This document shows positions 1-39,121 of a DNA stretch of 64,000 bases, in pieces (within the stretch, counting starts at the first letter, position 1; each line of letters begins with the position of its first letter). The stretch lies in the NCBI RefSeq assembly GCF_046105845.1, contig NZ_CP151004.1. One strand, given 5' to 3'. This DNA is from Escherichia coli. GTDB taxonomy: Bacteria; Pseudomonadota; Gammaproteobacteria; Enterobacterales; Enterobacteriaceae. The position numbers and the translations under genes were made by a program. The notes below the pieces were generated by a model. The model made no database searches. It worked only from the letters and a program-made list of their open reading frames with translations, and was not told the origin of the DNA.

Positions 1-293
1 AAACTACCAGTTTAAAAAGTCTGGCACAAAAAGCAGTTGATAGCGGAGTAAACGTAGCTCTGGTAACTATGAAAGCAGATTCGACGATCGGTAAATTAGC
101 TCAATCTGTGTTGGTACTACCAGGAAGTGTGAAAGACGATAACAATCGTGTTGCAGGCGCTTTCGCACAACCAATGGGATCGGCTTTTGAGCAGCTCTGC
201 TTTATTACTTATGATGCAATTGTTCTGGAGTTGATGTCTGAACTGGGTGAAAGCAGTGCCACAATGTTTACCCGACACGCTGATCTGGAATGA
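1..293 (+). CDS. 3' part of a gene running in from upstream of the window; C-terminal region resembles SIS-domain (phosphosugar isomerase/binding) proteins
   Basis: Frame of ORF 69..293 is open back to position 1 with no stop; stop at 291-293 followed by a terminator hairpin; product assigned by weak motif resemblance only. Confidence 0.3.
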   Translation, partial: TTSLKSLAQKAVDSGVNVALVTMKADSTIGKLAQSVLVLPGSVKDDNNRVAGAFAQPMGSAFEQLCFITYDAIVLELMSELGESSATMFTRHADLE

Positions 294-320
294 CCAAAGA
301 GTTGGTAATTAGAAAGTAAA

Positions 321-346
321 AAGCCTGCTTGAAAGCAGGCTTTTTT
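321..346. terminator. Rho-independent terminator hairpin (gcctgctt/aagcaggc plus T-run), A/T runs on both sides so possibly bidirectional
   Basis: Inverted repeat and T-run read directly in the sequence between the upstream CDS and the tRNA. Confidence 0.6.
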
Positions 347-351
347 GAATT

Positions 352-427
352 TGGCTCCTCTGACTGGACTCGAACCAGTGACATACGGATTAACAGTCCG
401 CCGTTCTACCGACTGAACTACAGAGGA
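352..427 (-). tRNA. asnV: tRNA-Asn (GUU)
   Basis: Exact reverse complement of the 76-nt E. coli tRNA-Asn sequence including CCA end; position next to nac. Confidence 0.93.
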
Positions 428-752
428 ATCGTGTGAACGGGGCGCATATTAATGGCAGTGCATGGTGATGTCAAAGGGTGAAATGCATTTTTTTGTTTGT
501 TTGCTGTCAATTTCAACAAAGTGGTGAGCTTTCAATCTTATTGGTAATGAACCATCGTGGTGCATACCCTCCTTTTATGGGGCAGGGGAACGCGACAGCT
601 GATAAAAAGAGCCAATGACGAACCTATCATAATCTCTTATTTGACAGTTGGTTAGCTTGTACATCAACGCCAAAATAAAACTGGCAAGCATCTTGCAATC
701 TGGTTGTAAGTAATGGCGGCACTTGGGCCGATTCTTAAAAACCGGAGGCAAC

Positions 753-1670
753 ATGAACTTCAGACGCCTGAAATACTTCGTAAAAATTGTAGATATTGGT
801 AGCCTGACCCAGGCTGCTGAAGTATTGCATATCGCACAACCAGCGCTCAGTCAGCAGGTTGCCACACTGGAAGGTGAGTTAAATCAACAACTTTTGATTC
901 GCACAAAACGGGGCGTTACGCCAACTGACGCCGGAAAAATTCTCTATACCCATGCGCGGGCCATTTTACGTCAGTGTGAGCAGGCCCAACTGGCGGTGCA
1001 TAACGTTGGTCAGGCATTATCGGGGCAAGTCTCGATTGGCTTTGCGCCAGGAACCGCTGCGTCATCCATCACCATGCCCTTATTACAGGCGGTTCGCGCT
1101 GAATTCCCGGAGGTCGTTATCTATCTTCATGAAAATAGCGGTGCAGTACTTAACGAAAAACTGATAAATCATCAACTCGATATGGCGGTGATTTATGAGC
1201 ATTCCCCTGTGGCTGGTGTATCCAGCCAGGCTTTGCTGAAAGAAGATCTTTTCCTGGTAGGAACTCAAGATTGCCCGGGGCAAAGCGTTGATGTTAATGC
1301 TATTGCGCAAATGAACCTCTTTCTCCCCAGTGATTACAGTGCTATTAGACTTCGTGTTGATGAGGCTTTTTCCCTACGGCGACTCACGGCAAAAGTCATT
1401 GGTGAAATTGAGTCTATTGCCACGCTTACCGCAGCGATTGCTAGCGGCATGGGCGTTGCAGTATTACCCGAATCGGCCGCGCGTTCGTTATGTGGCGCAG
1501 TAAATGGTTGGATGTCACGCATTACCACTCCTTCCATGAGTCTCTCTTTGTCATTAAATTTACCCGCCAGAGCGAACTTATCGCCACAGGCACAGGCAGT
1601 GAAAGAGTTGTTAATGTCAGTGATGAGTTCTCCAGTGATGGAAAAAAGGCAGTGGCAATTGGTGAGCTAA
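753..1670 (+). CDS. nac: LysR-family nitrogen assimilation control regulator Nac (305 aa)
   Basis: ORF 723..1670; ATG at 753 preceded by GGAGG; N-terminal [39 protein letters not shown] recognised as Nac. Confidence 0.9.
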   Translation: MNFRRLKYFVKIVDIGSLTQAAEVLHIAQPALSQQVATLEGELNQQLLIRTKRGVTPTDAGKILYTHARAILRQCEQAQLAVHNVGQALSGQVSIGFAPGTAASSITMPLLQAVRAEFPEVVIYLHENSGAVLNEKLINHQLDMAVIYEHSPVAGVSSQALLKEDLFLVGTQDCPGQSVDVNAIAQMNLFLPSDYSAIRLRVDEAFSLRRLTAKVIGEIESIATLTAAIASGMGVAVLPESAARSLCGAVNGWMSRITTPSMSLSLSLNLPARANLSPQAQAVKELLMSVMSSPVMEKRQWQLVS

Positions 1671-1771
1671 GCGTTATATCGGGATGGAATAAGATGCGGG
1701 TTTTTATTATTTGTTATGCCGGGCATTAGACTTTAACAATAACGGGAAATCTGAACTGCCCGGAGTTTACC

Positions 1772-2722
1772 GTGAATTTCCAACAAATAAAGATAATCCG
1801 CGAGGCTGCACGTCAGGATTACAACCTGACAGAGGTTGCGAATATGCTTTTTACCTCACAGTCCGGCGTCAGCCGTCATATTCGGGAACTGGAGGATGAA
1901 CTTGGCATCGAAATATTTGTTCGACGAGGTAAGCGACTGCTGGGCATGACTGAACCGGGCAAAGCATTACTGGTCATTGCAGAACGTATTCTGAATGAAG
2001 CCAGTAATGTTCGTCGGCTTGCAGACCTGTTTACCAACGATACGTCTGGCGTTCTCACTATTGCAACGACGCATACTCAGGCACGTTATAGCTTGCCAGA
2101 GGTCATTAAAGCTTTTCGCGAACTTTTCCCGGAGGTTCGGCTGGAGCTAATCCAGGGTACGCCACAGGAAATTGCGACGTTGTTGCAAAATGGCGAAGCT
2201 GATATTGGTATCGCCAGCGAGCGTTTGAGTAATGACCCGCAGCTCGTCGCCTTCCCGTGGTTTCGTTGGCACCATAGTTTGCTTGTTCCACTCGATCATC
2301 CCTTGACGCAAATTACACCGTTGACGCTGGAATCAATAGCGAAGTGGCCGTTAATTACTTACCGACAGGGGATTACGGGGCGCTCACGTATTGATGACGC
2401 ATTTGTCCGCAAAGGTTTGCTGGTAGATATTGTATTAAGTGCGCAGGATTCTGATGTCATTAAAACCTATGTTGCTCTTGGGTTGGGGATTGGATTAGTT
2501 GCCGAACAATCCAGCGGCGAACAAGAGGAAGAGAATTTAATCCGTCTTGATACGCGGCATCTTTTCGATGCCAATACTGTATGGTTGGGACTGAAGCGAG
2601 GGCAACTTCAACGTAACTATGTCTGGCGCTTTCTGGAACTTTGTAATGCAGGACTGTCAGTTGAGGATATCAAGCGCCAGGTGATGGAGAACAGTGAAGA
2701 GGAAATTGATTATCAGATATAG
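1772..2722 (+). CDS. cbl: LysR-family regulator Cbl (sulfonate-sulfur utilisation), GTG start, 316 aa
   Basis: ORF 1772..2722; protein MNFQQIKIIREAARQDYNLTEVANMLFTSQSGVSRHIRELE recognised as Cbl; follows nac as in E. coli. Confidence 0.9.
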   Translation: MNFQQIKIIREAARQDYNLTEVANMLFTSQSGVSRHIRELEDELGIEIFVRRGKRLLGMTEPGKALLVIAERILNEASNVRRLADLFTNDTSGVLTIATTHTQARYSLPEVIKAFRELFPEVRLELIQGTPQEIATLLQNGEADIGIASERLSNDPQLVAFPWFRWHHSLLVPLDHPLTQITPLTLESIAKWPLITYRQGITGRSRIDDAFVRKGLLVDIVLSAQDSDVIKTYVALGLGIGLVAEQSSGEQEEENLIRLDTRHLFDANTVWLGLKRGQLQRNYVWRFLELCNAGLSVEDIKRQVMENSEEEIDYQI

Positions 2723-2723
2723 C

Positions 2724-2752
2724 AAAAAGCCCGCTATAAAAGCGGGCTTTTC
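2724..2752. terminator. Rho-independent terminator after cbl (gcccgct/agcgggc stem plus T-run)
   Basis: Hairpin read directly after the cbl stop codon. Confidence 0.6.
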
Positions 2753-2759
2753 AGAAATT

Positions 2760-2835
2760 TGGCTCCTCTGACTGGACTCGAACCAGTGACATACGGATTA
2801 ACAGTCCGCCGTTCTACCGACTGAACTACAGAGGA
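2760..2835 (-). tRNA. asnU: tRNA-Asn (GUU)
   Basis: Exact reverse complement of the 76-nt tRNA-Asn; lies between cbl and yeeO. Confidence 0.93.
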
Positions 2836-2995
2836 ATCGCTGTTGAGGCACATCTTAACGGCGAAAAATCTTTTGTCAAACCCGATTTTTAAATTTCCCA
2901 ACTGTTTGCCGTTTCTATCAACAGTTTGTTGCATTTGCAGACAATTTGTTGGCGAAAATCTTTGCAGCTTTGCTGATTCTCCCTCATTATTTGAA

Positions 2996-4483
2996 ATGTG
3001 GTTTCACTTTCTGCAATTAAGGTCGGCTTTGAATATCTCCTCTGCTTTACGCCAGGTTGTTCACGGCACTCGCTGGCACGCTAAACGCAAGAGCTACAAA
3101 GTGTTGTTCTGGCGCGAGATAACCCCGCTTGCTGTTCCTATCTTCATGGAGAACGCCTGTGTCCTGTTGATGGGTGTTCTGAGCACTTTTCTGGTCAGCT
3201 GGCTGGGAAAAGATGCGATGGCCGGCGTGGGATTGGCCGACAGCTTCAATATGGTCATTATGGCTTTTTTTGCAGCTATCGATCTTGGTACCACTGTCGT
3301 TGTGGCATTTAGTCTCGGTAAGCGGGATCGACGACGAGCGAGGGTGGCGACGCGGCAGTCATTGGTGATCATGACGTTGTTTGCCGTACTGTTGGCAACG
3401 CTTATTCATCATTTTGGCGAACAAATTATTGATTTCGTCGCGGGTGATGCCACGACAGAAGTTAAAGCACTGGCGTTGACTTATCTGGAGCTGACGGTAC
3501 TCAGTTATCCAGCAGCTGCCATCACTTTGATTGGTAGTGGGGCACTTCGTGGTGCAGGGAATACGAAAATACCGCTACTGATTAACGGTAGCCTGAATAT
3601 TCTTAATATTATTATTAGCGGCATATTGATTTACGGCCTTTTCTCCTGGCCGGGACTGGGATTTGTCGGGGCTGGGTTGGGTTTAACCATTTCTCGTTAT
3701 ATTGGCGCAGTGGCAATTTTGTGGGTGCTGGCGATTGGTTTTAATCCTGCGCTAAGGATTTCGTTAAAGAGCTATTTTAAACCGCTGAATTTTAGCATTA
3801 TCTGGGAAGTCATGGGGATTGGTATTCCAGCAAGTGTCGAATCAGTATTATTTACCAGTGGTCGGTTATTAACCCAAATGTTCGTTGCCGGGATGGGGAC
3901 CAGTGTTATTGCCGGAAATTTTATCGCGTTTTCAATTGCGGCTCTTATCAACTTACCCGGAAGTGCGCTCGGCTCTGCTTCTACGATCATTACAGGCCGA
4001 AGGTTGGGAGTAGGGCAGATAGCGCAAGCAGAGATTCAGTTGCGGCATGTGTTCTGGCTGTCCACTCTTGGATTAACGGCCATCGCCTGGCTAACGGCTC
4101 CCTTTGCCGGGGTTATGGCATCGTTTTACACCCAGGATCCACAGGTTAAACATGTCGTTGTGATTCTGATTTGGCTAAATGCTTTATTTATGCCTATTTG
4201 GTCTGCCTCATGGGTGCTACCCGCTGGATTTAAGGGTGCTCGCGATGCACGTTACGCCATGTGGGTTTCTATGTTGAGCATGTGGGGTTGCCGGGTTGTA
4301 GTCGGTTATGTGCTGGGAATCATGCTTGGCTGGGGGGTGGTTGGTGTCTGGATGGGAATGTTTGCCGACTGGGCTGTGCGGGCCGTGCTGTTTTACTGGC
4401 GAATGGTTACTGGACGTTGGCTGTGGAAATATCCTCGATCTGAGCCGCAAAAGTGTGAAAAAAAGCCAGTTGTGTCGGAATAA
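2996..4483 (+). CDS. yeeO: MATE-family efflux transporter YeeO (495 aa)
   Basis: ORF 2843..4483 is a multi-pass hydrophobic protein recognised as YeeO; ATG at 2996 chosen because the longer ORF would abut the tRNA and 495 aa matches my recollection of the curated length. Confidence 0.8.
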   Translation: MWFHFLQLRSALNISSALRQVVHGTRWHAKRKSYKVLFWREITPLAVPIFMENACVLLMGVLSTFLVSWLGKDAMAGVGLADSFNMVIMAFFAAIDLGTTVVVAFSLGKRDRRRARVATRQSLVIMTLFAVLLATLIHHFGEQIIDFVAGDATTEVKALALTYLELTVLSYPAAAITLIGSGALRGAGNTKIPLLINGSLNILNIIISGILIYGLFSWPGLGFVGAGLGLTISRYIGAVAILWVLAIGFNPALRISLKSYFKPLNFSIIWEVMGIGIPASVESVLFTSGRLLTQMFVAGMGTSVIAGNFIAFSIAALINLPGSALGSASTIITGRRLGVGQIAQAEIQLRHVFWLSTLGLTAIAWLTAPFAGVMASFYTQDPQVKHVVVILIWLNALFMPIWSASWVLPAGFKGARDARYAMWVSMLSMWGCRVVVGYVLGIMLGWGVVGVWMGMFADWAVRAVLFYWRMVTGRWLWKYPRSEPQKCEKKPVVSE

Positions 4484-4583
4484 ACGACAAAGTGCAGATT
4501 ATTTCAGCAAACGATTTCAAATTTAAAAAACAGGCTTTGACATTGTGGATGGGCATCGCTAATATTCGCCTCGTTCTCACGAT

Positions 4584-4659
4584 TCCTCTGTAGTTCAGTC
4601 GGTAGAACGGCGGACTGTTAATCCGTATGTCACTGGTTCGAGTCCAGTCAGAGGAGCCA
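4584..4659 (+). tRNA. asnW: tRNA-Asn (GUU)
   Basis: Exact match to the 76-nt tRNA-Asn on the + strand; inverted relative to asnU. Confidence 0.93.
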
Positions 4660-4720
4660 AATTTTAGTTTTGAGACATCTCTATAAGTCTCAAAACAGTT
4701 AAAAAATAAAAATTATTTTT

Positions 4721-4756
4721 ACCCGGTTACTTGTAAAAAAGTTACCGGGTTTTTTG
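4721..4756 (+). terminator. Rho-independent terminator downstream of asnW and yeeO
   Basis: Imperfect inverted repeat acccggttac/gttaccgggt followed by a T-run. Confidence 0.55.
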
Positions 4757-5112
4757 ATTTCTGTGTTTCGTGCGCTTAATCGAGTCTCACGCTTCAGTGA
4801 GCAAATTGCCCCTCCCCAACAGACATCACGATTCGCAAGGTCAAAAACTCTGTTCCATGAAGTACCGTACAAAGATAAAGAGAAAAATGCCTTATGCGGG
4901 ATGTCGCTATCGCGTCTTTATCGGGAAACTATGCGTAATTGCCACTTTGCCTTCTGTAATCAGAAAAAGAAGAACTGGAATTTTAATAAATATTATTTCT
5001 CTGGGAATGGGTTTTTTTTATAATCAATATGACGAGTTGAACATTATATTTTTATAATGATTATATGAGATTAAAGAAATCTGCCATAAAGACAGATTTC
5101 TTTAAAATATAA

Positions 5113-5829
5113 TTAGAGATTTGCGACGTTATGATAAACTTTTTGTACATCGTCGTCATCTTCAAGGGCATCAACAAGCCCTTCAAAGATTTCTAAATCT
5201 TCTGGGGAAAGCTCAACTTCAGATTGAGCAATCATTTCTAATTCTGTTGTTGAGAACTCAGTGATTCCAGCTGCTTTTAGAGCCGCGATTCCTTTATGAA
5301 GGTCAGTAGGTTCGGTATAAATAACAATGTTACCTTCTTCTTCAGTCACATCACGAACATCAACTTCAGCTTCAAGTAAAATTTCAAAAATATGGTCAGG
5401 GTCTGTTCCTTTAAATACAATCACACCCGTATTGTCAAACATATAGCTGACAGAACCTGCCGCTCCGATATTGCCGCCTTTTTTATTGAAAATTGTGCGA
5501 ACGTTAGCAATCGTACGGTTAACATTGGAAGTCAAGGTTTCAGCGATAATCATTGAGCCATTAGGACCAAAGCCTTCATAACGGCCCTGCACGAACGTTT
5601 CATCTCCGCCGCCTTTGGCTTTATCAATTGCTTTATCAATAACATGCTTTGGAACTTGTGCCTGCTTTGCTCGTTCAATAACGAATTTTAAAGATGTGTT
5701 TAATTCTGGATCGGGTTCACCTTGTTTGGCAGCGGCATAGATTTCTACACCGAATTTTGCATAAATTTTAGACGTCGCACCGTCTTTAGCCGTTTTTTTA
5801 GCAACAATATTGGCCCATTTACGTCCCAC
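5113..5829 (-). CDS. yeeN: YebC/PmpR-family transcriptional regulator paralog YeeN (238 aa)
   Basis: ORF with N-terminus [27 protein letters not shown] typical of the YebC family; position between asnW and amn. Confidence 0.85.
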
Positions 5830-6171
5830 TGGAATGATCTCCTCGAAAATTTATTTACATTACTGGTAAATCGTTAACATGTGTTAGTTCGGCATATTAT
5901 ATCATAACAGGAAAAATCTCGTCTATTAGAAATAAAAATATTCTAAAGCCATAATATTATATTTAATCTCATAAAAACTAATGTTGTTGGCGGATTTTTT
6001 TATAATTCTTTTTTGAAAGCATACTTGCTTTTAATATGTGGAAATCATTAAGACGATAATAAAACTCGTATCCGCCCAAGGAAGCAAACAGCCCGCGTTT
6101 ATTGCGGGCTATTTGCCAGATGTCTTACTTAATCCTTCACATCTATTTTTGATAAGAAGGTTCAGAACTTA

Positions 6172-7626
6172 TTATCGGAACGGCGGCTCATTAAAGGTTC
6201 GTAATTTACGTGAATGCAGTCGGTCGCCTTCTGCGCGCAGCAAATCGATCGCCCGAATGCCAATTTGCAGGTGTTCGGAAATAGCGCCTTCATAAAAACG
6301 GTTAGCCTGACCGGGAAGTTTAATCTCACCATGCAACGGTTTATCTGAAACACACAGTAGTGTCCCGTATGGCACGCGGAAACGATATCCTTGCGCAGCG
6401 ATGGTTGCACTTTCCATATCAATTGCTACGGCCCGGCTTAAGTTAAAACGAAGTGCAGAAGCTGAGTAACGTAATTCCCAATTCCTGTCATCTGTGGTTA
6501 CCACAGTGCCAGTACGTAGCCGCTGTTTAACTTCCTCACCGGGCCTGCCGCTGACTAACTTGGTAGCGTCATAAAGCGCACGTTGCACTTCAGCAATGCT
6601 CGGAATAGGAATATCGGGCGGCAGTACCGCATCAAGAACGTGGTCATCGCGTAAATAAGCGTGTGCAAGTACATAATCTCCAATGGCCTGGCTTTCACGT
6701 AAGCCACCACAGTGACCAATCATCAACCAGACATCCGGGCGTAGCACCGCCAGATGATCGCAGATGGTTTTTGCATTTGACGGTCCCACGCCAATATTCA
6801 CCAGAGTAATACCCTGACCATCGACGGTAATTAAATGCCATGCTGGCATCTGGTGTTTTTTCCATGCAAGGTCGGAAATGGCTTCTTCTGGCGCTTCGGT
6901 TTCGGCGGTGATCCAGTTCCCGCCAGCACAAGAAAGGGCAATGTAGGGACTATCAGGGTCGAGGATCTGGCTGCATCCCCAACGAACGAATTCATCCACA
7001 TAACGTGTGTAGTTGGTAAACAAGACGAACGGCTGAAAATGTTCAACTGGCGTACCGGTATAATGGCGCAACCGCGCGAGGGAAAAATCGACGCGGCGCG
7101 CATCAAAATGCGATAGCGGGGAGAATTCCGTTGGATGATAAATGCCGTCTGCAGTTTCATCGCCAATTTGCGCCAGTTCTGTTGTCGGGAAGTAGCGAGT
7201 TAGCCCAGCGCTCATTGAGCGATCAAGTGTCAATTCAGAGCCATCGATGACATAAGGATAAGGGATTTCATGCTGCGAGGGTTGCATCGAGATATGCGCA
7301 CCATAATCCTGATACAGCAACGTAAGTTGTTCATTGAGATACGAACGAAAGAGAGTAGGGCGAGTAATCGTGGTGGTGTAGCTGCCTGCGTGGGTAAAAC
7401 GACCAAATGCGCGCGTTTTGGGGGGATTGGTTGTGCTACCGTCCCAGGTTACGGTCAGTGATGGATAGACAAAAAGACCTTGTTTGCGGGCGTTTTCATC
7501 AGGTAATTCGCCACTTGTAATATATTTGCCAATGGCGTTGCGTAAAGCGACTACAGATTGCTCATACAGCGCGTCGAGTTTATCCAGTGCCTGAGCTGGG
7601 GTCAGACCGGAGCCCTTATTATTCAT
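6172..7626 (-). CDS. amn: AMP nucleosidase (484 aa)
   Basis: ORF 6172..7731 recognised as Amn; start placed at the ATG giving MNNKGSGLTPAQALDKL with an AGGAG upstream; the longer ORF is an N-terminal artefact. Confidence 0.88.
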   Translation of the reverse strand: MNNKGSGLTPAQALDKLDALYEQSVVALRNAIGKYITSGELPDENARKQGLFVYPSLTVTWDGSTTNPPKTRAFGRFTHAGSYTTTITRPTLFRSYLNEQLTLLYQDYGAHISMQPSQHEIPYPYVIDGSELTLDRSMSAGLTRYFPTTELAQIGDETADGIYHPTEFSPLSHFDARRVDFSLARLRHYTGTPVEHFQPFVLFTNYTRYVDEFVRWGCSQILDPDSPYIALSCAGGNWITAETEAPEEAISDLAWKKHQMPAWHLITVDGQGITLVNIGVGPSNAKTICDHLAVLRPDVWLMIGHCGGLRESQAIGDYVLAHAYLRDDHVLDAVLPPDIPIPSIAEVQRALYDATKLVSGRPGEEVKQRLRTGTVVTTDDRNWELRYSASALRFNLSRAVAIDMESATIAAQGYRFRVPYGTLLCVSDKPLHGEIKLPGQANRFYEGAISEHLQIGIRAIDLLRAEGDRLHSRKLRTFNEPPFR

Positions 7627-7727
7627 GTGTGTCTCCTGTTCCATACAATTACCGCACATCCGATAGTATGTCACAGAAATGTGAAACAAAAGTGTAAGGC
7701 GAAGATCGGATGATCTTCGCCAGACTA

Positions 7728-9044
7728 TCAAGCGCGTTGATTATCTTTCATCAACAAAGCGGTCATTGCGGAAATCAGGCATCCAGCCAGCAAATAAATG
7801 GCGACGCTATGCCAGTTCCCGGCAAAGTAAGTGATGAGTGCAGCGGCAATAAAAGGTGTAAATCCACCGCCAACCACACTGGCAACCTGATAACCGACTC
7901 CAGCGCCACTATAGCGATAACTGGCACCAAACATTTCGGTAAACATCGGTTGTTGCACACACACCACCATGTCATGCGCAATGTTTGCCAGCATTATGGA
8001 GAAGAAAACTATCCAGAAAATAGATTGTGCTTCAAGCGCCATAAAGAAAGGAAATGCGCTCAACGTTCCGATTAACGCACCTGTGATATAAACCCTGCGG
8101 CGACCAAAACGATCGGCAAGCCAGGCAAAACAGGGAATTGTCAGGCAGCTTAATCCACCTACCAGCAAACCAATATTGAGGAAAAGTTCGCGCGGTAACC
8201 CCATATTCTGGGTTGAATAATTAAGTGCGAAGGCGGTAACGATGTACATCGTCAGCAACTCGCACAGTCGTAGCGCAATAATCTTCAGGAAAGCACCAGG
8301 ATGCCGTAATAGTGCTTCGATAACCGGAATGCGTTTTTTCGCGGCCGCTTGATTATGTTGCTGTTGTTCGAATTCCGCGGACTCCTCCATGCCATTGCGC
8401 ACCCACAATGCTCCCAGTACCAGTACGATGCTAAACAGGAAAGGAATGCGCCAGCCCCAGCTTAAAAACTGTTCGTCAGTCGTCATCATACTGATCAATG
8501 AAACCAGTCCGGTTGAAAGCAGTAAACCTACACCGTAGCCAACTTGTACACCGCTACTATAAAAGGCTTTTTTATTTTTCGGCGCACTTTCAACGGAAAG
8601 TAACGCCGCGCCTCCCCATTCGCCGCCGACGGCAAATCCCTGTATGGCACGCAGCGTCACCAGTAAAATGGGGGCCCACCACCCAATGGTCGAGAAGGAA
8701 GGAAGAATACCAATCAAGGCTGTCGCGATGCCCATCATCCAGACGGTCAGCATTAACATGCGTTTACGTCCCAGTCGGTCGCCAAAGTGACCGAAAATGA
8801 CACCGCCGAGCGGACGGAACAGGAATCCGACACCAAAGGTGGCAAATGCGGCGAGCGTTCCCATAGCCGGGCTTACTTGCGGGAAAAACTCGCGATTAAA
8901 CACCAGTGCGGCGGTAATGCCATAGAGTAAAAAATCATACCAGTCGACGACGGCACCGGCAAAACTGCCTAACGCAGCTCGTCGGGCGCGACTTAACGAA
9001 AGCGTCCCTTCATCGGGACGAGTGGAGATGAGCGTGGAGTCCAT
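7728..9044 (-). CDS. shiA: MFS shikimate/H+ symporter ShiA (438 aa)
   Basis: 438-aa multi-pass membrane ORF with MFS sugar-transporter motifs; position between amn and yeeL. Confidence 0.88.
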   Translation of the reverse strand: MDSTLISTRPDEGTLSLSRARRAALGSFAGAVVDWYDFLLYGITAALVFNREFFPQVSPAMGTLAAFATFGVGFLFRPLGGVIFGHFGDRLGRKRMLMLTVWMMGIATALIGILPSFSTIGWWAPILLVTLRAIQGFAVGGEWGGAALLSVESAPKNKKAFYSSGVQVGYGVGLLLSTGLVSLISMMTTDEQFLSWGWRIPFLFSIVLVLGALWVRNGMEESAEFEQQQHNQAAAKKRIPVIEALLRHPGAFLKIIALRLCELLTMYIVTAFALNYSTQNMGLPRELFLNIGLLVGGLSCLTIPCFAWLADRFGRRRVYITGALIGTLSAFPFFMALEAQSIFWIVFFSIMLANIAHDMVVCVQQPMFTEMFGASYRYSGAGVGYQVASVVGGGFTPFIAAALITYFAGNWHSVAIYLLAGCLISAMTALLMKDNQRA

Positions 9045-9358
9045 AATGATCCTGTTTGTACTGTCTTTTTATAATTAGTATGGAAAAGGTAACTCACATT
9101 GCCGTCGATCTATAAACGAACCTTATGAGACTACCTCGACAGAGCGCATCTGCAAATGATTTTATGGCTGATGAGCAACAACACGAAAAATTCGCTGGAA
9201 GATGAAAGCGCAGGAGTTGCTGGTGTTGTTTAAGGATTAAGCAGAGGCCCCACAGGTTCGAGATATGAAACATAAAAGTCCGCATATGTACAAAATAGCA
9301 CCCTGATGAGTCTGATAGACTGCATTGCATTATAACCAGTAGGGAGGCGAGGTTAGGT

Positions 9359-10411
9359 ATGTTTTTAGCATCATTGTTGAGACGTATTGCATTTAGTTAC
9401 TACGATTATAAAGCTAATAATTTCAATATTGGAAAAACAGACTTTGTTGTCATCCATATTCCCGATCAAATTGGCGATGCTATGGCCATCTTTCCAGTTA
9501 TTCGGGCGATTGAAATGCATAAAATAAAGCATCTTTTAATTGTTACTTCGACTATTAATTTAGAAGTCTTTAATGCGCTCAAACTTGAACAGACTAAATT
9601 AACATTAGTCACAATGACTATGCAGGATCACGCAACATTAAAAGAAATAAAAGATTTAGCGAAGAACATAACACAGCAATACGGTACGCCGGATCTTTGT
9701 ATAGAGGCGATGCGTAAAAAGAACCTGAAAACGATGTTATTTATCAGTCAGTTGAAAGCAAAAACGAATTTTCAGGTTGTCGGTTTAACCATGAAGTGCT
9801 ATTCCCCTTTGTGTAAGAACGCGTCCCGGATGGATCAGAATCTCAGGGCTCCCGTACCCATGACATGGGCGTTTATGATGCGTGAAGCGGGTTTTCCTGC
9901 AGTCAGGCCAATATATGAATTGCCATTAAGCGAGGATGTACTCGATGAGGTGCGCGAGGAAATGCGATCGTTAGGATCTTACATTGCGCTTAATTTAGAA
10001 GGTAGCTCGCAGGAGCGTACATTTTCATTATCGATTGCAGAAAATCTAATAGCAAAAATTCAAAGTGAAACAGATATACCAATAGTGATCGTTCATGGAC
10101 CCAAAGGGGAAGATAAAGCCAGGGAACTAGTGAATAGTTATAATAATGTCTACCGTTTATCCTTGTCACCCTCGATTAAACGTTCAGCAGCAATCATAAA
10201 AGATGCTTATATCGCAATAACACCTGACACCTCAATATTACATATGGCAAGTGCCTATAATACCCCCGTTGTTGCAATTTATGCTGATTACAAAACGCGA
10301 TGGCCCGCAATGGCCGATGTCTCGGAGTCAGTCGTCGTTGGGCAAAAAATTGACAATATAAGTCTGGATGAATTCGCAAAGGCATTAAAAAGTGTTTTGG
10401 CGAGAATTTGA
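9359..10411 (+). CDS. yeeL: Glycosyltransferase family 9 (ADP-heptose:LPS heptosyltransferase-like) protein, intact 350 aa; I recall this locus as a pseudogene in K-12
   Basis: Uninterrupted 350-aa ORF with ATG at 9359 and AGGGAGG upstream; C-terminal region has GT9-like character; visibly AT-rich. Confidence 0.65.
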   Translation: MFLASLLRRIAFSYYDYKANNFNIGKTDFVVIHIPDQIGDAMAIFPVIRAIEMHKIKHLLIVTSTINLEVFNALKLEQTKLTLVTMTMQDHATLKEIKDLAKNITQQYGTPDLCIEAMRKKNLKTMLFISQLKAKTNFQVVGLTMKCYSPLCKNASRMDQNLRAPVPMTWAFMMREAGFPAVRPIYELPLSEDVLDEVREEMRSLGSYIALNLEGSSQERTFSLSIAENLIAKIQSETDIPIVIVHGPKGEDKARELVNSYNNVYRLSLSPSIKRSAAIIKDAYIAITPDTSILHMASAYNTPVVAIYADYKTRWPAMADVSESVVVGQKIDNISLDEFAKALKSVLARI

Positions 10412-10982
10412 GGCAGTACTTATGCATAGTAATGCCGATCTGTTATGAACGGTAGTGTCATCAATGCTCTGAGGCTGGTCAATCATCACAGAAAACCAGC
10501 CTTTGGATCAAAGCAGTACTCACCGAAAATGCTCATAGTCACACCGAACGCGATTCAGGTGGAACTAAAACATTCACCATCATAAATAAGACAGCCTGAA
10601 CTTAAATCCCCGTTAACAGGCATACATTATAATGAGTGGTACTGATGTAATTTGTAATATTGAAATATGAACTGATATTGTTTGTTCGTCCTGACATATC
10701 TTCCTCCTTGATGTAATTAGCTAAACATTAACGTAATTTGACTGCATAGCAACAATGATAGCTATCAATAATAGCTCATGTACTTCGTTTCCCGCTGGCG
10801 TGGAACAGGTGGTTATACCATGTGTGAAAGCGTTTATTAAAAAAGAAAGGAGGCTCGACTATCTTCAGACTAACAGGGATGTATGGGAAAATGCAGGTAT
10901 ATTAATGGAGCGTTTGACAGCAAACGAATGTAAAAGTAGAGCGCCCCGAATGGAGCACTCTGTAAGAAAATATAGCGAAAAA

Positions 10983-19595
<8,613 letters not shown>

Positions 19596-19907: not shown

Positions 19908-19983
19908 TGGCTCCTCTGACTGGACTCGAACCAGTGACATACGGATTAACAGTCCGCCGTTCTACCGACTGAACTACAGAGGA
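19908..19983 (-). tRNA. asnT: tRNA-Asn (GUU)
   Basis: Exact reverse complement of the 76-nt tRNA-Asn; about 24 nt of its 5' flank are identical to the asnV 5' flank. Confidence 0.93.
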
Positions 19984-20974: not shown

Positions 20975-21064
20975 GGAGAGATGCCGGAGCGGCTGAACGG
21001 ACCGGTCTCGAAAACCGGAGTAGGGGCAACTCTACCGGGGGTTCAAATCCCCCTCTCTCCGCCA
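20975..21064 (+). tRNA. serU: tRNA-Ser (CGA)
   Basis: 90-nt sequence ggagagatgccggagcggctgaacgg...ctctctccgcca with long variable arm, CGA anticodon and CCA end; divergent from mtfA. Confidence 0.9.
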
Positions 21065-21732
21065 CTTTATCAATGACTTATCTCCCGACTTCCCGCCTTG
21101 CTTTTCCTAAACAGAACAATCGTAGAATATTCTTGAAGGGTTAGATCGTCACTGTTTTCTGTTCGATACTGTGACATTCAGCACTTGATTCGCTATGGAT
21201 CTGACAGGAAGGTTTCGAGCGAAAATGTGCAGTTATTCAGTCGTTTTCTTATCGGTCACCATTATTCTTTTAGACATTGATCCTACAAAGCTGCCGCAAA
21301 GTTGGTGGTGGGAACTGAAGTTGCGTAGAGAAGGGGTCAATAATTGAGCAAAAAAAGGAACGCGGCCGTCAGATTAAAGCCGCGGGACAAAGTCCATAAT
21401 TTCCAAGAGTTGTTGAATTTCCCAGCTTTTTTGAAAGCCTTTGTATCATACTAACAAGTAAAAAAGGTTTAAATACCAAAATTAACCTATATTTCTGGTT
21501 AGCTTTACCATGACAGATGACTTGCTCCTGGAGACATTGGCGCAGCCAGTCTGTATTGGTGAGTTGTGTATTTATTGTTCGCCGTTTTCTCAGTTTTTTC
21601 TACAGACATAATAAAAAAGACACGTCTCAAGCATGAGCGTGTCTGAGTTTGTCTTATTTATTTGTCTTGGTAAATTATTGTCGTTACTACCAGGCACTGT
21701 TCTGTTAAATAATTGAAGTCAGCGCAAAAAAA

Positions 21733-22383
21733 TCAATGAGACATCATCTCCTCGACCACTTCTTCGCTACTCAACTGATATGGATAATACGTTGGCCAGT
21801 TTTCCATTTCATTTAATAAAGATTGCTGTGAATCATTACCCATAAAAATGTGAAAATGAGATGATTTTCGTGGTGCAATTATATGATCGCTAAATTGAAT
21901 ATATTTAGGGGCTTTGCTTTCAGGATCTTTACATTCGAATAAGTAACGAACGCCTTTCTTGCCTGATTTATAGGTGAGTATTTTGTATCCATCGTAATCA
22001 TATTTACAGGATGTTGTTTCATTATTTCTATGGAATTCAACAATGCCGTCCTCAATGCCAATCATCTCGATATCTGTCACATAACCTTTGCGATAATAAT
22101 CTTTAATTTCAGCAAATGTTTTGGTTTTATCTGCATCCGCTTTCTTCTGAAAGACGGGGTCAAGTTTGCCACTTTGCAGTAAAGGATAAACGGATTGCCA
22201 GACTCCATCCCAGTCACTGAGCGTTCGGTTTTGTACATTGGCATCATCAAAAACACCATTAGCAGCTTTTTGTTCGACCTCTGTTAAGGGTTTGCCGTGT
22301 GAGTGATGACCATGCGAAAAGGCAGGAGCGCTAACAATAAAGACACCTAAAGCAACAGCCAGTTTATGAAGACGAATCGCCAA
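21733..22383 (-). CDS. zinT: Periplasmic zinc/cadmium-binding protein ZinT (216 aa)
   Basis: Signal peptide followed by HGHHSHG His-rich motif; recognised as ZinT (YodA). Confidence 0.9.
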
Positions 22384-22416
22384 AACAGTTTCCTCCAGAG
22401 TTAATGTATATGATGT

Positions 22417-22438
22417 GTAATGTTATATTGTAACATAT
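22417..22438. promoter_or_regulatory. Zur-box-like palindrome upstream of zinT
   Basis: gtaatgttatattgtaacatat lies 35-55 bp upstream of the zinT start and matches the AT-rich Zur operator palindrome; zinT is a known Zur target. Confidence 0.55.
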
Positions 22439-22572
22439 AACAAAATGCAACAACTCTTAGGAGACAAGAGAATAGTTCTCTCAGGTGTGCTTATCTATCT
22501 TATTGAAATAAAATAAATTATGTCGATGATTTGAGGTTGATGACAAACGAAACATAACTTGATGTGATCTGC

Positions 22573-22607
22573 GTAGGCCGGATAGGGCGCTCGCGCCGCA
22601 TCCGGCA
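22573..22607. repeat. REP (repetitive extragenic palindromic) element
   Basis: gtaggccggatagggcgctcgcgccgcatccggca in the msrQ-zinT intergenic region has the typical REP palindrome. Confidence 0.5.
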
Positions 22608-22639
22608 GGGATAACGCGTACTTTGTCGGCAATATGAAG

Positions 22640-23275
22640 TTATACAGATAATTTGTTGTGAACCTGCTTGCGTAACCGGTTAAAAAGGGAACGCAACTTC
22701 TTATACCGTAAGGCTAAAAGCAGTACAGCCAGCCCAGCGTAGATGAGCGGCTGCGGTGAAATAATCTTCACTGACCACAGATAATGTATTGGGGCCAGGA
22801 TCGCGACAAGATAGACGAAATTATGCAACTGTTGCCAGTGCTTGCCGAGTTTTCGCTGCATCGCCTGGGTTGAAGTAAACGCTAAAGCAAGCAAAATAAC
22901 CCAGCTGATAATTCCTAACGTTAAATAAGGCCGGGTAATTAACTCCTTGCCTAATAACGCCAGATTATTCACGCCCAGCTCCAGTAATGCGTAACTGGTT
23001 AAATGCAGTGTCGCCCAGGCAAAGCACCATAAGCCTAACAGGCGGCGAGTGCGTATCAATAACGGCTGTTTTGCGTAGCGTGCCAGAGGTGTGATTAACA
23101 AGGTCGCCAGCAAAAATTTCAGTGCAGTGCGGCCAGTAAAATGCTGAATATCTTTCACCGGATCGGCACCCAATCCACCGTGATTAATCGCCCAGACCAG
23201 CCAGAGAAACGGCAACAATCCGGCAAGATGCAGGCAAACTTTCAGCCATGTCACCTGTTTTGCTGTCAGACGCAT
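22640..23275 (-). CDS. msrQ: Methionine sulfoxide reductase haem-binding membrane subunit MsrQ (211 aa)
   Basis: 211-aa multi-pass membrane ORF immediately downstream of msrP; recognised as YedZ/MsrQ. Confidence 0.88.
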
Positions 23276-24286
<1,011 letters not shown>

Positions 24287-24388
24287 TCACACTTTTTTGT
24301 CGTTAGCCAGCAAGAGCCGTTTACTGTTAATCTGTCAGGGAGTGTCCTCCCTAACAGTAGCAGAGATCTGCTTTTACATATTTATGCA

Positions 24389-24802
24389 TTAACTGCCACG
24401 ATAGGTTGAATACCCATATTGGCTAAGTAATAAAGGCACATGATAATGCTCGTTCACTTTATTAATATGAAATTCAACGGGGATCTCAGGGAAGAAACTT
24501 TCAAGATTTTGTTTCTTGAAATAGTCCCCGGTTTTAAATACGACACGGTAATCGCCAGTAGTAGCAGTTTGCTCGGGCCACAGTGCCTTAATTCGTCCAT
24601 CCTTATCTGTTTTGGCGGTATTAAGTTGTAACCAGCCGTTGTCCGCTTTCTTTTCAAGAGTGACTGTCACGTCGGCAGCGGGTTTTCCTGTTTGCTGGTT
24701 CAAAATGTGCACGCTAAGAATGTTTTGTTGTGCAGCATAGACCAAAGAAGGTAATGAAAATGCAGCCGTTACTACGGAGAGAACTAAATAACGCTTTAAC
24801 AT
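24389..24802 (-). CDS. hiuH: 5-hydroxyisourate hydrolase (transthyretin-like periplasmic protein), 137 aa
   Basis: Signal peptide plus transthyretin-family C-terminal YRGS motif; position between msrP and hprR. Confidence 0.85.
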
Positions 24803-24934
24803 GTTTATATCCTTGTCATGTGAATGAGTTTTGAGGATAGCGAAAAAACGTCCAGGGTAACCTTACAGCAGCATTACAATTTTGTAATGAACCAGGCTGT
24901 TTCTATAACATATGATTTATGGCATATTATTTTC

Positions 24935-25606
24935 ATGAAGATTCTACTTATTGAAGATAATCAAAGGACCCAGGAATGGGTAACGCAGGGGCTTTCCGAA
25001 GCGGGTTATGTCATTGATGCCGTTTCTGATGGCAGAGATGGGCTTTATCTTGCGCTGAAGGATGATTATGCATTGATCATTCTGGATATTATGCTTCCGG
25101 GTATGGATGGCTGGCAGATCTTACAAACGTTAAGAACAGCAAAGCAAACCCCTGTTATTTGCCTTACTGCAAGAGATTCTGTCGATGACAGAGTCAGAGG
25201 GCTGGACAGTGGAGCAAATGATTATCTGGTAAAACCTTTTTCATTTTCTGAGTTGCTGGCAAGGGTTCGGGCACAATTAAGGCAACATCACGCTTTGAAT
25301 TCAACATTAGAAATCAGCGGCTTAAGAATGGACTCTGTTAGTCAAAGTGTGAGCAGGGACAATATCAATATTACACTGACGCGCAAGGAGTTTCAGTTAC
25401 TTTGGCTACTGGCCTCCAGAGCTGGCGAAATTATACCCAGAACGGTTATTGCGAGTGAAATTTGGGGAATCAACTTTGATAGTGATACCAATACGGTGGA
25501 TGTCGCCATTCGCAGGCTCCGCGCAAAAGTTGATGATCCTTTTCCTGAAAAGCTAATCGCCACAATCCGGGGGATGGGCTATTCATTCGTAGCGGTAAAA
25601 AAATAA
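24935..25606 (+). CDS. hprR: OmpR-family two-component response regulator HprR (223 aa)
   Basis: ORF 24824..25606; start placed at MKILLIEDN; receiver domain followed by winged-helix domain. Confidence 0.85.
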   Translation: MKILLIEDNQRTQEWVTQGLSEAGYVIDAVSDGRDGLYLALKDDYALIILDIMLPGMDGWQILQTLRTAKQTPVICLTARDSVDDRVRGLDSGANDYLVKPFSFSELLARVRAQLRQHHALNSTLEISGLRMDSVSQSVSRDNINITLTRKEFQLLWLLASRAGEIIPRTVIASEIWGINFDSDTNTVDVAIRRLRAKVDDPFPEKLIATIRGMGYSFVAVKK

Positions 25607-26964
25607 TGAAAAGATTATCTATAACCGTCCGTTTAACCTTGCTTTTTATATTGCTGCTGTCTGTTGCTGGCGCTGGAATTGTATGGACTCTCTATAATGG
25701 CCTGGCAAGTGAGTTGAAATGGCGCGATGATACAACACTCATTAACCGGACAGCGCAGATCAAGCAGTTGTTAATTGATGGGGTAAATCCAGATACGTTA
25801 CCTGTGTACTTTAACCGGATGATGGATGTTAGTCAGGATATCTTGATCATTCATGGTGATAGCATCAACAAGATTGTTAACCGGACGAATGTCAGTGATG
25901 ACATGTTAAATAACATACCTGCTACTGAGACAATCAGCGCAGCTGGCATTTACAGAAGCATTATTAATGACACAGAGATAGATGCTTTACGAATTAATAT
26001 TGATGAAGTTTCGCCATCATTAACGGTTACTGTGGCTAAATTGGCTTCAGCCAGATATAACATGCTTGAACAGTATAAAATTAATAGCATTATAATTTGC
26101 ATTGTCGCCATTATACTGTGCTCAGTATTAAGTCCGTTGTTAATCAGAACGGGGTTACGAGAGATCAAAAAGTTGAGTGGTGTAACGGAAGCGCTGAATT
26201 ATAACGATAGCCGAGAACCTGTTGAGATTAGTGCATTACCGAGAGAACTAAAACCTCTTGGGCAGGCGTTGAATAAAATGCACCAAGCCTTAGTCAAAGA
26301 TTTTGAACGCCTAAGTCAATTTGCTGACGATCTCGCTCATGAACTTAGAACGCCAATTAATGCATTACTGGGTCAGAATCAGGTTACGCTCAGTCAAACC
26401 AGAAGTATCGCTGAATATCAAAAAACAATTGCCGGAAACATTGAAGAGCTGGAAAATATTTCGCGGTTAACAGAGAACATACTGTTTCTTGCCAGGGCAG
26501 ATAAAAACAATGTTTTGGTGAAATTGGATTCGCTTTCTCTCAATAAGGAAGTTGAAAATCTTTTGGACTATCTTGAATATCTTTCAGACGAGAAAGAGAT
26601 TCGTTTTAAGGTGGAGTGCAATCAGCAAATTTTTGCGGATAAAATTTTACTGCAACGAATGTTATCGAATCTTATTGTTAACGCCATTCGATATTCGCCA
26701 GAAAAATCGCGTATTCATATAACCAGTTTTCTTGATACCAACGGCTCTCTTAATATTGATATCGCCAGCCCTGGAACGAAAATTCATGAGCCTGAAAAAC
26801 TCTTCCGGAGATTTTGGCGGGGAGATAATTCGCGTCATTCCGTAGGTCAGGGACTTGGTCTTTCTTTAGTCAAAGCGATTGCCGAATTGCATGGGGGAAG
26901 TGCTACGTATCACTATCTCAATAAGCATAATGTATTCCGGATTACGTTACCGCAAAGAAATTAA
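25606..26964 (+). CDS. hprS: Two-component sensor histidine kinase HprS (452 aa)
   Basis: Two TM segments, H-box (LAHELRTPINAL) and HATPase region; start overlaps the hprR stop. Confidence 0.85.
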   Translation: MKRLSITVRLTLLFILLLSVAGAGIVWTLYNGLASELKWRDDTTLINRTAQIKQLLIDGVNPDTLPVYFNRMMDVSQDILIIHGDSINKIVNRTNVSDDMLNNIPATETISAAGIYRSIINDTEIDALRINIDEVSPSLTVTVAKLASARYNMLEQYKINSIIICIVAIILCSVLSPLLIRTGLREIKKLSGVTEALNYNDSREPVEISALPRELKPLGQALNKMHQALVKDFERLSQFADDLAHELRTPINALLGQNQVTLSQTRSIAEYQKTIAGNIEELENISRLTENILFLARADKNNVLVKLDSLSLNKEVENLLDYLEYLSDEKEIRFKVECNQQIFADKILLQRMLSNLIVNAIRYSPEKSRIHITSFLDTNGSLNIDIASPGTKIHEPEKLFRRFWRGDNSRHSVGQGLGLSLVKAIAELHGGSATYHYLNKHNVFRITLPQRN

Positions 26965-27071
26965 CATAGGGCTTCAGTACGCCATAAATTAACCGTGAAA
27001 ACACGCAGCCACGTCGTGAGTACTAACGCGGCTGCGATTGATTATGCGCTTACATTCAAACGTAACAGGGA

Positions 27072-27923
27072 TTAACCCGCGTAAGCTGCCAGCATTTCCT
27101 GCGCCGCCAGTTTACCCAACGCATTCGCTGCGAAAGGACTGTCGCCGGTGAGAACTTTACGGTCCTTATGTACTCGCCCGGTGATGTCGTCATTAATGAT
27201 GTTCATGCCCATTTTCTTCAGCTCTTCGCCGAAGTACCAGGTGAGATGACCCGGCATATAGCCTATCTCTGGCGTTTGTTTGTCTGCGGCGTCTGGGAAT
27301 GCGCAAATGGAATAACCATTCAGTGGGTTATCGCCGTGGCGAAGCGCCAGAAATGCCGCCGGGCCGTGGCAAAGGGAGATAACAAAACGGTCATTTTTGA
27401 TTGCCCACTGTAAAGCGGCAGCCACGTCCTGGCTTTCTGGTAAACCAATAAGTGCGCCATGACCACCAGGAACAAAGATTGCTGCATATTCGCTGTCAGC
27501 GTTGAGGCTGGCGACAACATCCGCGAGTTTCTTCGGATTGCGGAACAACGATTTATGCTGCTCAAAGAATGGCATTACTTTTTCATCTTTGTGTGGCATA
27601 GCCCAGTATTCAAACTTGGTCATCAGACCGGAAATGGTCGCCACTTCGAATTCGAAACCTGCAGCATGGAGATGATACAACGGCAGCAACGTTTCAATCG
27701 GATGGTTACCGGTCGAGAACAGTTTCCCGTTATCGGTCGGCAAATAACGTTCGTCCGCGGCGATCACCAGAATTTTATGTTTACCGCGATACGGTTTTGG
27801 ATAGTCCACGCCATCAAGATCAGAGACAGGACTGGTATATTGGCTAAGCGAATATTCTGAAGGGAAGAATGCATTATCTTCAGCAATATCGACCTGCGGA
27901 TTTTTACTTGTTTGAACAGTCAT
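27072..27923 (-). CDS. hchA: Hsp31 glyoxalase / protein deglycase (DJ-1/PfpI superfamily), 283 aa
   Basis: Protein MTVQTSKNPQVDIAEDNAFFPSEYSLSQYTSP recognised as HchA. Confidence 0.9.
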   Translation of the reverse strand: MTVQTSKNPQVDIAEDNAFFPSEYSLSQYTSPVSDLDGVDYPKPYRGKHKILVIAADERYLPTDNGKLFSTGNHPIETLLPLYHLHAAGFEFEVATISGLMTKFEYWAMPHKDEKVMPFFEQHKSLFRNPKKLADVVASLNADSEYAAIFVPGGHGALIGLPESQDVAAALQWAIKNDRFVISLCHGPAAFLALRHGDNPLNGYSICAFPDAADKQTPEIGYMPGHLTWYFGEELKKMGMNIINDDITGRVHKDRKVLTGDSPFAANALGKLAAQEMLAAYAG

Positions 27924-28513: not shown

Positions 28514-29707
28514 TTAGAACTGGTAGACTAAGCCCACAGCAACGATATCATCGGTAGCGATGCCGTTAGCTTCGTAGAAGTCGTCGTCGTTGTCCAGCAG
28601 GTTGATTTTGTAATCAACATAGGTGGACATATTTTTGTTGAAGTAGTAGGTCGCACCGACTTCAACGTATTTAACCAGATCTTTATTGGTGTAACGCGGA
28701 TCGCCATTACCGTCATGAGCCCAACCGCCTAAATCCTTCCCTTTAGATTGCAGGTAAGCGATGGACGGGCGCAGGCCGAAGTCGAACTGATACTGAGCAA
28801 CAACTTCAAAGTTTTGGGTTTTGTTCGCAATACCACCTCTGTCAATGTCGTTATTGTCTTTTCCGCTGCCATATGCAGTCATATTACGTGTTTCTGCATA
28901 CATTGCCGCTAAATAGACATTATTCGCATCATATTTAGCACCGACTGTCCATGCTTCAGCTGTTTCACCACCAGCATATTTATTCGAGCGTTGCTCACCT
29001 AAACCAGTAGCACGTTGGTTATCAGTACGGTCAGAGTTTGAATATGCAGCCCCGAGGCTTAACCCGAAGTCAAAGTCATAGGAAGTGGACATACCGAAAC
29101 CGTCACCATTTTCTTTAGACAGTTTACGATTATTACCATTACCAGAACCTTCTTGATCCCAAAGCCCACCCGATCCTTCATTATTACCCTGATATTGCAG
29201 AGCAAAGTTCAGGCCATCGACCTGACCAAAGAAGCCATTGTTACGGTAGGTTGCAACACCATTAGCACGACCGTTCAGGAAGTTGTCGGCACCAGCATAG
29301 GTATCGCCACCAAATTCTGGCAGCATATCGGTCCATGCTTCGATGTCATATACGACACCGTAGTTACGACCATAGTCGAAAGTACCATTCTGACCAAAGC
29401 CTAAACCTGCAAATGCCAGACGCGTTGCGGTATTACCTTTGTCGCTTTCAGGACCGTTTGCGCCAATGTTAAATTCCCACTGACCATAACCAGTGAATTG
29501 GTCAGCGATCTGAGTTTCACCTTTGAAACCGATACGGGCATATGACATGTCGCCATCGCTGCCAGCATCATCAGAGAAGTAGTGCAGGCCCGCTACTTTT
29601 CCGTACAAATCCAGTTTATTACCATCTTTATTATAGACTTCAGCCGCATTTGCTGCGCCAGCAACTAATAACGCCGGGACCAGCATTGCCAGAACTTTTC
29701 TTTTCAT
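28514..29707 (-). CDS. yedS: OmpC/OmpF-family general porin YedS, apparently intact (about 397 aa); I recall it as a split pseudogene in K-12
   Basis: ORF 28514..29737; start placed at [21 protein letters not shown] (signal peptide); aromatic-rich beta-strand composition ending in a terminal F typical of porins. Confidence 0.8.

Positions 29708-38842: not shown

Positions 38843-39121
<279 letters not shown>

Follow-up and report, generated by a model that had tools for sequence, protein, structure and literature searches.

The AT-rich patch around yeeL in Escherichia coli: probably an ancient, H-NS-coated acquisition and not the cause of yeeJ silence

A 2.5-kb AT-rich patch in the E. coli sequence analyzed here (a stretch of 64,000 nucleotides, referred to as the window) comprises yeeL, an orphan and divergent gene of glycosyltransferase family 9 (GT9), the two spacers that flank it, and the 3' end of yeeJ, which varies between alleles. 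We consider it probable, with a chance of roughly three in four, that yeeL was acquired anciently, that H-NS coats the patch and that the patch does not cause the silence of yeeJ. The compositional anomaly itself is real and statistically solid, yet ordinary for E. coli, and published genome-wide studies of K-12 had already placed H-NS on the yeeL region. Beyond annotation the relevance of these observations is small: an anomaly that was noticed by eye falls on an H-NS domain known from the literature, and the tempting inference that the patch causes the cryptic expression of yeeJ, which lacks support, is corrected.

The window is oriented opposite to K-12. From left to right it contains amn (6172-7626, minus strand), shiA (7728-9044, minus strand), the divergent shiA-yeeL spacer (9045-9358; 314 bp), yeeL (9359-10411, plus strand), the convergent yeeL-yeeJ spacer (10412-10982; 571 bp) and a long allele of yeeJ that encodes 2870 amino acids (10983-19595, minus strand), followed by a tRNA-Asn gene (19908-19983) that lies between yeeJ and mtfA. 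In this strain yeeL is an intact gene of 350 codons, annotated as a 'glycosyltransferase family 9 protein'; the K-12 copy is a pseudogene, interrupted by a stop at codon 235. Positions 9000-11100 are 100% identical to strain 19KM1831, to which the whole window is about 98% identical, differing left of position 4644. The convergent spacer and the 3' end of yeeJ vary between alleles: the K-12 spacer measures only 261 bp as compared to 571 bp in the window, and the 3' 1.5 kb of yeeJ shows just 79% identity to K-12.

Next to yeeL, the convergent spacer begins with a conserved part (10412-10562; 151 bp, 46.4% GC) that is common to almost all E. coli and 96.6% identical to K-12. It continues with an allele-specific segment (10563-10925; 363 bp) that is the most AT-rich part of the spacer (36.4% GC), in place of which K-12 carries an unrelated 54 bp. 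Of 5426 complete E. coli genomes, 211 carry this 363-bp segment, where it has no annotation. The yeeJ-proximal part (10926-10982) runs on into the 3' end of yeeJ and holds a terminator-like hairpin (10938-10961, minus strand) just 3' of the yeeJ stop codon, with a 10-bp stem that includes 6 G-C pairs and is conserved in K-12. No RNA family emerged from an Rfam scan of positions 8900-11600 (E ≤ 1), and the only plasmid records that matched the 363-bp segment or YeeL were in fact chromosomes with a wrong label.

An earlier note on this DNA had described yeeL and the convergent spacer as AT-rich relative to shiA and yeeJ, and the computed values bear this out: positions 9359-10982 (1624 bp) have a GC content of 39.2% as compared to 50.7% for shiA and 50.0% for yeeJ, and this value is clearly below the window average of 48.6%. 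yeeL itself has 39.1% GC and the convergent spacer 39.4%. Among all segments of the same length, 9359-10982 ranks at the 2.6th percentile; its low GC content has a P of about 1e-14 under a model of independent bases and a z of −1.9 when non-overlapping segments are used, that is, when it is judged against the heterogeneity of the window itself. The patch is, however, bigger than had been claimed. When 500-bp sliding segments with a GC fraction below 0.42 were merged, the patch covered 8959-11467 (2509 bp, 40.8% GC), and the extremes of the cumulative deviation, at 9042 and 11881, delimit it to 9043-11881. It extends from about the shiA start codon (~9043) into the last ~500-900 bp of yeeJ (~11467-11881), and the shiA-yeeL spacer (41.7% GC) falls inside it; of yeeJ, only this terminal portion is included, the gene body having 50% GC. 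The frequency of TpA is 8.0% in the patch versus 5.0% in the window. The codons of yeeL show the same tendency, with a GC3 of 37.0% and 12% rare codons, and the codon adaptation index, which had been proposed as a check, was 0.168 for yeeL, the second lowest among 49 genes (median 0.295); the weights were those of Sharp and Li (1987), and the values are usable as ranks only. Such a composition is by no means exceptional in this DNA: seven AT-rich patches of 800 bp or more, the one at yeeL included, together make up 22% of the window, and a GC content of 40.3% or less is shared by 6 of its 51 genes.

Published chromatin immunoprecipitation data support the earlier proposal that this region is targeted by H-NS. 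To place these data, K-12 coordinates (U00096.2) were derived from the gene layout and gene lengths in a K-12-like record and from the offset of a PhoB site, giving yeeJ at 2,042,927-2,050,003, the convergent spacer up to 2,050,264, yeeL at 2,050,265-2,051,317 and shiA from 2,051,632; the insertion position given by Brambilla and Sclavi is consistent with this placement. Under anaerobic conditions an H-NS ChIP-chip peak was reported at 2,050,117-2,051,500 in K-12 (Myers et al. 2013, PMC3688515 Table S3), which maps to window positions ~9176-10559 and thus to yeeL and parts of both spacers, including the yeeL-proximal part of the shiA-yeeL spacer. The aerobic peak is larger and covers yeeL with its flanks (2,048,864-2,053,534; PMC3688515 Table S3). 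The same study lists an IHF peak within yeeL (PMC3688515 Table S4) and an FNR peak designated 'end of yeeJ/yeeL_2' that was present only in the Δhns/ΔstpA strain (0.254 against 0.475, significant; PMC3688515 Table S7). Furthermore, an H-NS-sensitive Phns-yfp reporter inserted at 2,050,100 in the yeeL-yeeJ spacer (site LT2) was repressed like the same reporter at the LT site, where the repression was H-NS-dependent (Brambilla and Sclavi 2015, PMC4390576). This spacer serves as a 'neutral' integration site though it is H-NS-repressive. PMC4999555 has no entry for the genes of the yeeL locus. All these H-NS data come from K-12, which has a shorter spacer, no 363-bp segment and a yeeJ 3' end that is 79% identical to that of the window.

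The consequences of H-NS loss can be followed in the RNA-seq data for a Δhns ΔstpA strain (Srinivasan et al. 2015, PMC4288151, sheet hs-wt), in which the log2 fold change is given for the wild type relative to the mutant and which leave out yeeL, a pseudogene in K-12. All six measured window genes with a GC content below 45% (rcsA, hprS, hprR, hiuH, zinT and yeeN) were strongly derepressed in the mutant, with a median log2 fold change of −3.95 versus 0.0 among 35 further genes (Spearman rho 0.41, p = 0.008), and shiA was unchanged. The b-numbers of that data set were matched to what we take to be the corresponding gene names. AT content predicts H-NS/StpA silencing throughout the window. The high-affinity H-NS motif TCGATAAATT was absent from the patch when at most 1 mismatch was allowed, and with at most 2 mismatches it had 92 matches across the window versus 75±10 expected, an enrichment that is not significant. 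Because the patch holds no motif with at most 1 mismatch, we attribute the binding of H-NS to general AT and TpA richness.

The earlier note had gone one step further and connected the patch with the cryptic expression of yeeJ, and this part of its proposal is not supported. That H-NS nucleated on yeeL and the spacer silences yeeJ is very unlikely. It is true that the aerobic H-NS domain reaches ~1.1 kb into the 3' end of yeeJ, that the reporter within the spacer is repressed, and that a separate aerobic H-NS peak (2,029,841-2,043,505) spans the yeeJ promoter. However, yeeJ starts at 19595, which puts 8.6 kb between its promoter and the patch; the promoter lies in an AT-rich spacer of its own (41.6% GC). 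The intervening gene body (K-12 2,043,505-2,048,864; 50% GC) carries a single aerobic H-NS peak of 283 bp (2,046,983-2,047,266) and none anaerobically. Moreover, yeeJ (b1978) was not derepressed in the Δhns ΔstpA strain, the log2 fold change of the wild type relative to the mutant being +0.39 (p = 0.06; PMC4288151). yeeJ was silent under many growth conditions, and a transposon screen for derepression of a yeeJ-lacZ fusion yielded insertions in pnp only (Martinez-Gil et al. 2017, PMC5595812). In that work H-NS was not implicated in the control of yeeJ, and PNPase was the sole repressor found genetically (PMC5595812).

Signals of RNA polymerase are also present at the patch in K-12. One sigma70 ChIP-seq peak lies just upstream of shiA at 2,051,584, which corresponds to about position 9092 of the window (PMC3688515). 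At the yeeJ end of the convergent spacer, a strong sigma70 ChIP-seq peak was reported at 2,050,027, its height of 2966 being comparable to that of the asnT peak, together with a strong RpoS-holoenzyme SELEX peak at 2,049,968 (intensity 150.8). Despite the sigma70 peak, a simple scan of the K-12 spacer revealed no consensus promoter, and in the patch sigma70-like promoter sites were not enriched (11 versus 7.8±2.6 expected). H-NS is known for masking non-canonical or spurious promoters, and the sigma70 and RpoS peaks at the yeeJ end could reflect a promoter of that kind. One may speculate that the spacer holds an H-NS-masked RNA polymerase site which drives an unannotated transcript, and that this RNA might play a part in PNPase-dependent control of the yeeJ message, but we regard this as quite improbable. 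The RNA could run antisense to the 3' end of yeeJ or to yeeL, and in the allele of the window it could include a 31-codon open reading frame (10697-10602) with a strong ribosome-binding site. As judged by comparison of alleles, this reading frame is probably not a gene: it is kept in two alleles, one with about eight amino-acid changes and its stop codon lost, and it is deleted in another.

The horizontal acquisition that had been proposed for yeeL from its composition is plausible, though unproven, and would be ancient. The atypical composition, the patchy distribution of homologues and their occurrence at several sites speak for acquisition. Homologues of YeeL were found only in Escherichia, Pseudocitrobacter, a few Enterobacteriaceae, Erwinia and Rosenbergiella, and the search gave no matches in Salmonella, Klebsiella or Citrobacter. 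Each copy is a single gene, and at least five different genomic settings occur. Among these are a position beside shiA (E. coli and Pseudocitrobacter), the tonB-yciA region (E. albertii), a site between maeB and eut (another enterobacterium) and one that follows an MFS transporter gene (Erwiniaceae). The copies in Enterobacteriaceae have a GC content 6-12 points below that of their flanks, and those in Erwiniaceae are host-like. Other findings speak against a recent event. yeeL is present in 5342 of the 5426 complete E. coli genomes (98%), its dS (0.06-0.14) matches the values for shiA, amn, mtfA and yeeN, and the order shiA-yeeL-mtfA is conserved in Pseudocitrobacter, which carries no yeeJ at this place. 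For these reasons any transfer of yeeL must be ancient. A mobile genomic island was considered and rejected: no annotated integrase is found next to yeeL, no direct repeats flank it and no tRNA gene adjoins it, the nearest being the tRNA-Asn gene at 19908-19983, beyond yeeJ.

The alternative that yeeL is native and vertically inherited, its AT-richness resulting from relaxed selection and AT-biased mutation during decay towards a pseudogene, has to be weighed against these observations. Constraint on yeeL is indeed relaxed: its dN/dS (0.12-0.35) is 4-10 times that of its neighbours (0-0.03), and the gene has been inactivated repeatedly, by the K-12 stop codon, by IS1 insertions and by truncation in Shigella. 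A native gene would also account for the flank-like dS, the shared order in Pseudocitrobacter and the lack of mobility signatures, and the 67% identity of the Pseudocitrobacter protein, compared with 79-90% for the flanking proteins, is as expected of a faster-evolving gene. Yet yeeL is intact in most genomes with a dN/dS far below 1, its homologues in E. albertii, the enterobacterium with the maeB-eut copy and Erwiniaceae sit at other loci, Salmonella, Klebsiella and Citrobacter gave no matches, and it is all of the enterobacterial copies, but not those of Erwiniaceae, that fall far below their flanks in GC content. We therefore regard a native origin as unlikely, if worth keeping in mind. 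The present data are best read as an ancient acquisition of yeeL with weak selection ever since, the horizontal component being plausible and unproven.

Under the reading of an ancient acquisition, yeeL most likely reached the Escherichia lineage horizontally at an early date, which would precede the diversification of E. coli and possibly also the divergence from Pseudocitrobacter. The gene would have stayed AT-rich through weak expression and weak constraint, so that codon selection would not have shifted it to the composition of the host. H-NS, and probably also StpA, coats the AT-rich DNA, as shown in K-12 and as we infer for the strain of the window. This coat would occlude sites for RNA polymerase and transcription factors within yeeL and the convergent spacer, and would thereby keep yeeL and spurious transcription from the spacer quiet. 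The silence of yeeJ would probably have another cause than this patch.

The product of yeeL looks like a functional, divergent GT9 enzyme, because it combines a match to the Pfam family, a GT-B model and invariant motifs with low scores against equivalog models. The match to Pfam GT9 (PF01075) scored 32 bits (cut-off 22, E = 1e-7) and is confined to residues 232-321. The AlphaFold model predicts a GT-B two-domain fold (pLDDT 85.5, pTM 0.83), for which the top Foldseek matches are the GT9 enzymes 3TOV, 1PSW (WaaF) and 2GT1/2H1H/6DFE. Gly39-Asp40 in the N-terminal part and Asp290-Thr291...His295 in the C-terminal part are invariant in 28 YeeL homologues, and the resulting D-(T/S)-x-x-x-H motif aligns with DSGLMH of WaaF. 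The G-D and D-(T/S)-x-x-x-H residues have a catalytic role in WaaC and WaaF. The NCBIfam equivalog cut-offs for the lipopolysaccharide (LPS) heptosyltransferases were missed by YeeL (I, 39.5 versus 185 bits; II, 21.5 versus 135 bits; III, 16.5 versus 170 bits). In a TraDIS study of ST131, yeeL was among the genes whose disruption was enriched in hypermotile cells (PMC5425062). This finding suggests that yeeL is not fully silent everywhere. The gene is intact in the strain of the window and in most E. coli, and has one reported motility phenotype.

Certain heptosyltransferases have a large adhesin as their substrate: TibC and Aah modify TibA and AIDA-I. Since yeeL adjoins yeeJ and encodes a member of the heptosyltransferase family GT9, the two genes might be taken for a functional pair in which YeeL glycosylates the YeeJ adhesin in the same manner, their shared AT-rich junction being a trace of co-acquisition. 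Several observations make this hardly credible. The genes are convergent and form no operon, the GC content of yeeJ is normal, and the nearest folds are GT9 enzymes of the LPS type, with TibC outside the top 50 matches. The two genes are also uncoupled in evolution, as yeeL is present in 98% of genomes and yeeJ is complete in only ~35-40% (PMC5595812, PMC6714894). Indeed, Pseudocitrobacter and an Escherichia-like locus with a 72% allele carry yeeL without yeeJ. A role of YeeL as a TibC/Aah-like adhesin glycosyltransferase was consequently rejected.

Compared with known systems, YeeL shares with TibC and Aah (the BAHT family) the heptosyltransferase superfamily and a gene position beside a large adhesin gene, but it has no sequence match to TibC, and yeeL is not co-transcribed with yeeJ and is widespread without it. 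Its best structural matches are the LPS heptosyltransferases WaaC and WaaF (2GT1, 2H1H, 1PSW) together with 3TOV of Veillonella parvula, with TM values of 0.62-0.72. The identity to these matches is nevertheless just 11-15%, the scores against the NCBIfam heptosyltransferase I/II/III models are 13-40 bits as compared to cut-offs of 135-583 bits, and yeeL lies outside the waa cluster. The patch as a whole differs from other H-NS/StpA-bound AT-rich regions of K-12 (PMC3688515) in that it consists of one nearly universal gene instead of a multi-gene island, has no mobility genes, is flanked by shiA and yeeJ, which do not respond to H-NS loss, and contains in the strain of the window an extra 363-bp AT-rich segment that is missing in K-12. 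With these regions it shares an AT content that exceeds the local mean by about 10 points along 2.5 kb, a transcription-factor site that in K-12 is unmasked upon deletion of hns and stpA, and a neighbourhood in which other AT-rich genes of the window are derepressed in the mutant; the orthologous segment of K-12 is itself one of the listed H-NS peaks.

Besides the AT-rich patch around yeeL, we identified six further AT-rich patches of 38-41% GC in the window, which are located at 4380-6455, 21008-22839, 24162-27078, 29322-30585, 39000-40531 and 50907-52856. The AT-rich genes from these patches that were measured in K-12 (yeeN, zinT, hiuH, hprRS and rcsA) were derepressed 7- to 120-fold in the Δhns ΔstpA mutant. 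Among them yeeN was striking, with a log2 fold change of −6.46 (wild type relative to Δhns ΔstpA, negative values denoting derepression). The most AT-rich coding stretch of the window, at 34% GC, is the region of a leucine-rich-repeat protein gene on the plus strand (51405-52516). This region shares only 82% identity with the reference strain, whose own gene does not align with it over the full length as one uninterrupted reading frame.

We also observed other forms of yeeL outside the window. A second yeeL allele, with 72% protein identity and 37.7% GC, is carried by two human-gut metagenome contigs (L008 and L009) in a rearranged Escherichia-like locus with the gene order hchA-yeeL'-mtfA-shiA-amn. 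This locus lacks both yeeJ and the hprRS-zinT block, and the proteins flanking yeeL' are 90-98% identical to their counterparts in the window. Furthermore, an IS1 insertion splits yeeL in some E. coli genomes, and truncated copies are present in Shigella sonnei (the yeeL-disruption matches are covered by H7 and H8 of our search of complete E. coli genomes, NZ_OZ042069.1 and NZ_CP124320.1). These split and truncated copies are inactivations that are independent of, and additional to, the nonsense codon of K-12.

The allele-specific segment of the yeeL-yeeJ spacer (10563-10925) contains a 31-codon ORF on the minus strand (10602-10697; MSGRTNNISSYFNITNYISTTHYNVCLLTGI) with a strong ribosome-binding site in front of its start codon (AAGGAGG, 5 nt, ATG); the yeeJ terminator is on that strand too, upstream of the ORF. 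Comparison of the alleles revealed that two others keep this ORF and that it is deleted in a third. In one of the two that keep it, the peptide differs at many amino acids, the binding site is weakened and the stop codon is lost. The ORF is probably not a gene. At the K-12 yeeJ 3' end, published data place a strong sigma70 ChIP-seq peak (2,050,027, height 2966), together with a SELEX peak for the RpoS holoenzyme (2,049,968, intensity 150.8), at the equivalent of about 10926-11020 in the window, which comprises the yeeJ stop codon and terminator region; a simple scan found no consensus promoter there.

Three tRNA-Asn genes (352-427, 2760-2835 and 4584-4659) lie at the left end of the window; K-12 likewise has three (asnV, asnU and asnW), and this asn tRNA cluster is the site of a variable island. 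Strain 19KM1831, which matches the yeeL region best, loses similarity to the window left of 4644, just beyond yeeN (window 1-4660 compared with 1-7650 of the strain's locus, L001), and has there instead an integrase remnant together with an RHS element core gene and a TPR-protein gene.

The yeeJ gene itself (10983-19595, minus strand, internal repeats at about 14521-16560) encodes 2870 amino acids in the window versus 2358 in K-12, a difference of 512. Across its 3' 1.5 kb, identity to K-12 is only 79%, and a matching 3' flank occurs in only about 4% of complete genomes. Two yeeJ length variants that are 906 bp apart have been described (PMC5595812), and the allele in the window is unlike either of them.
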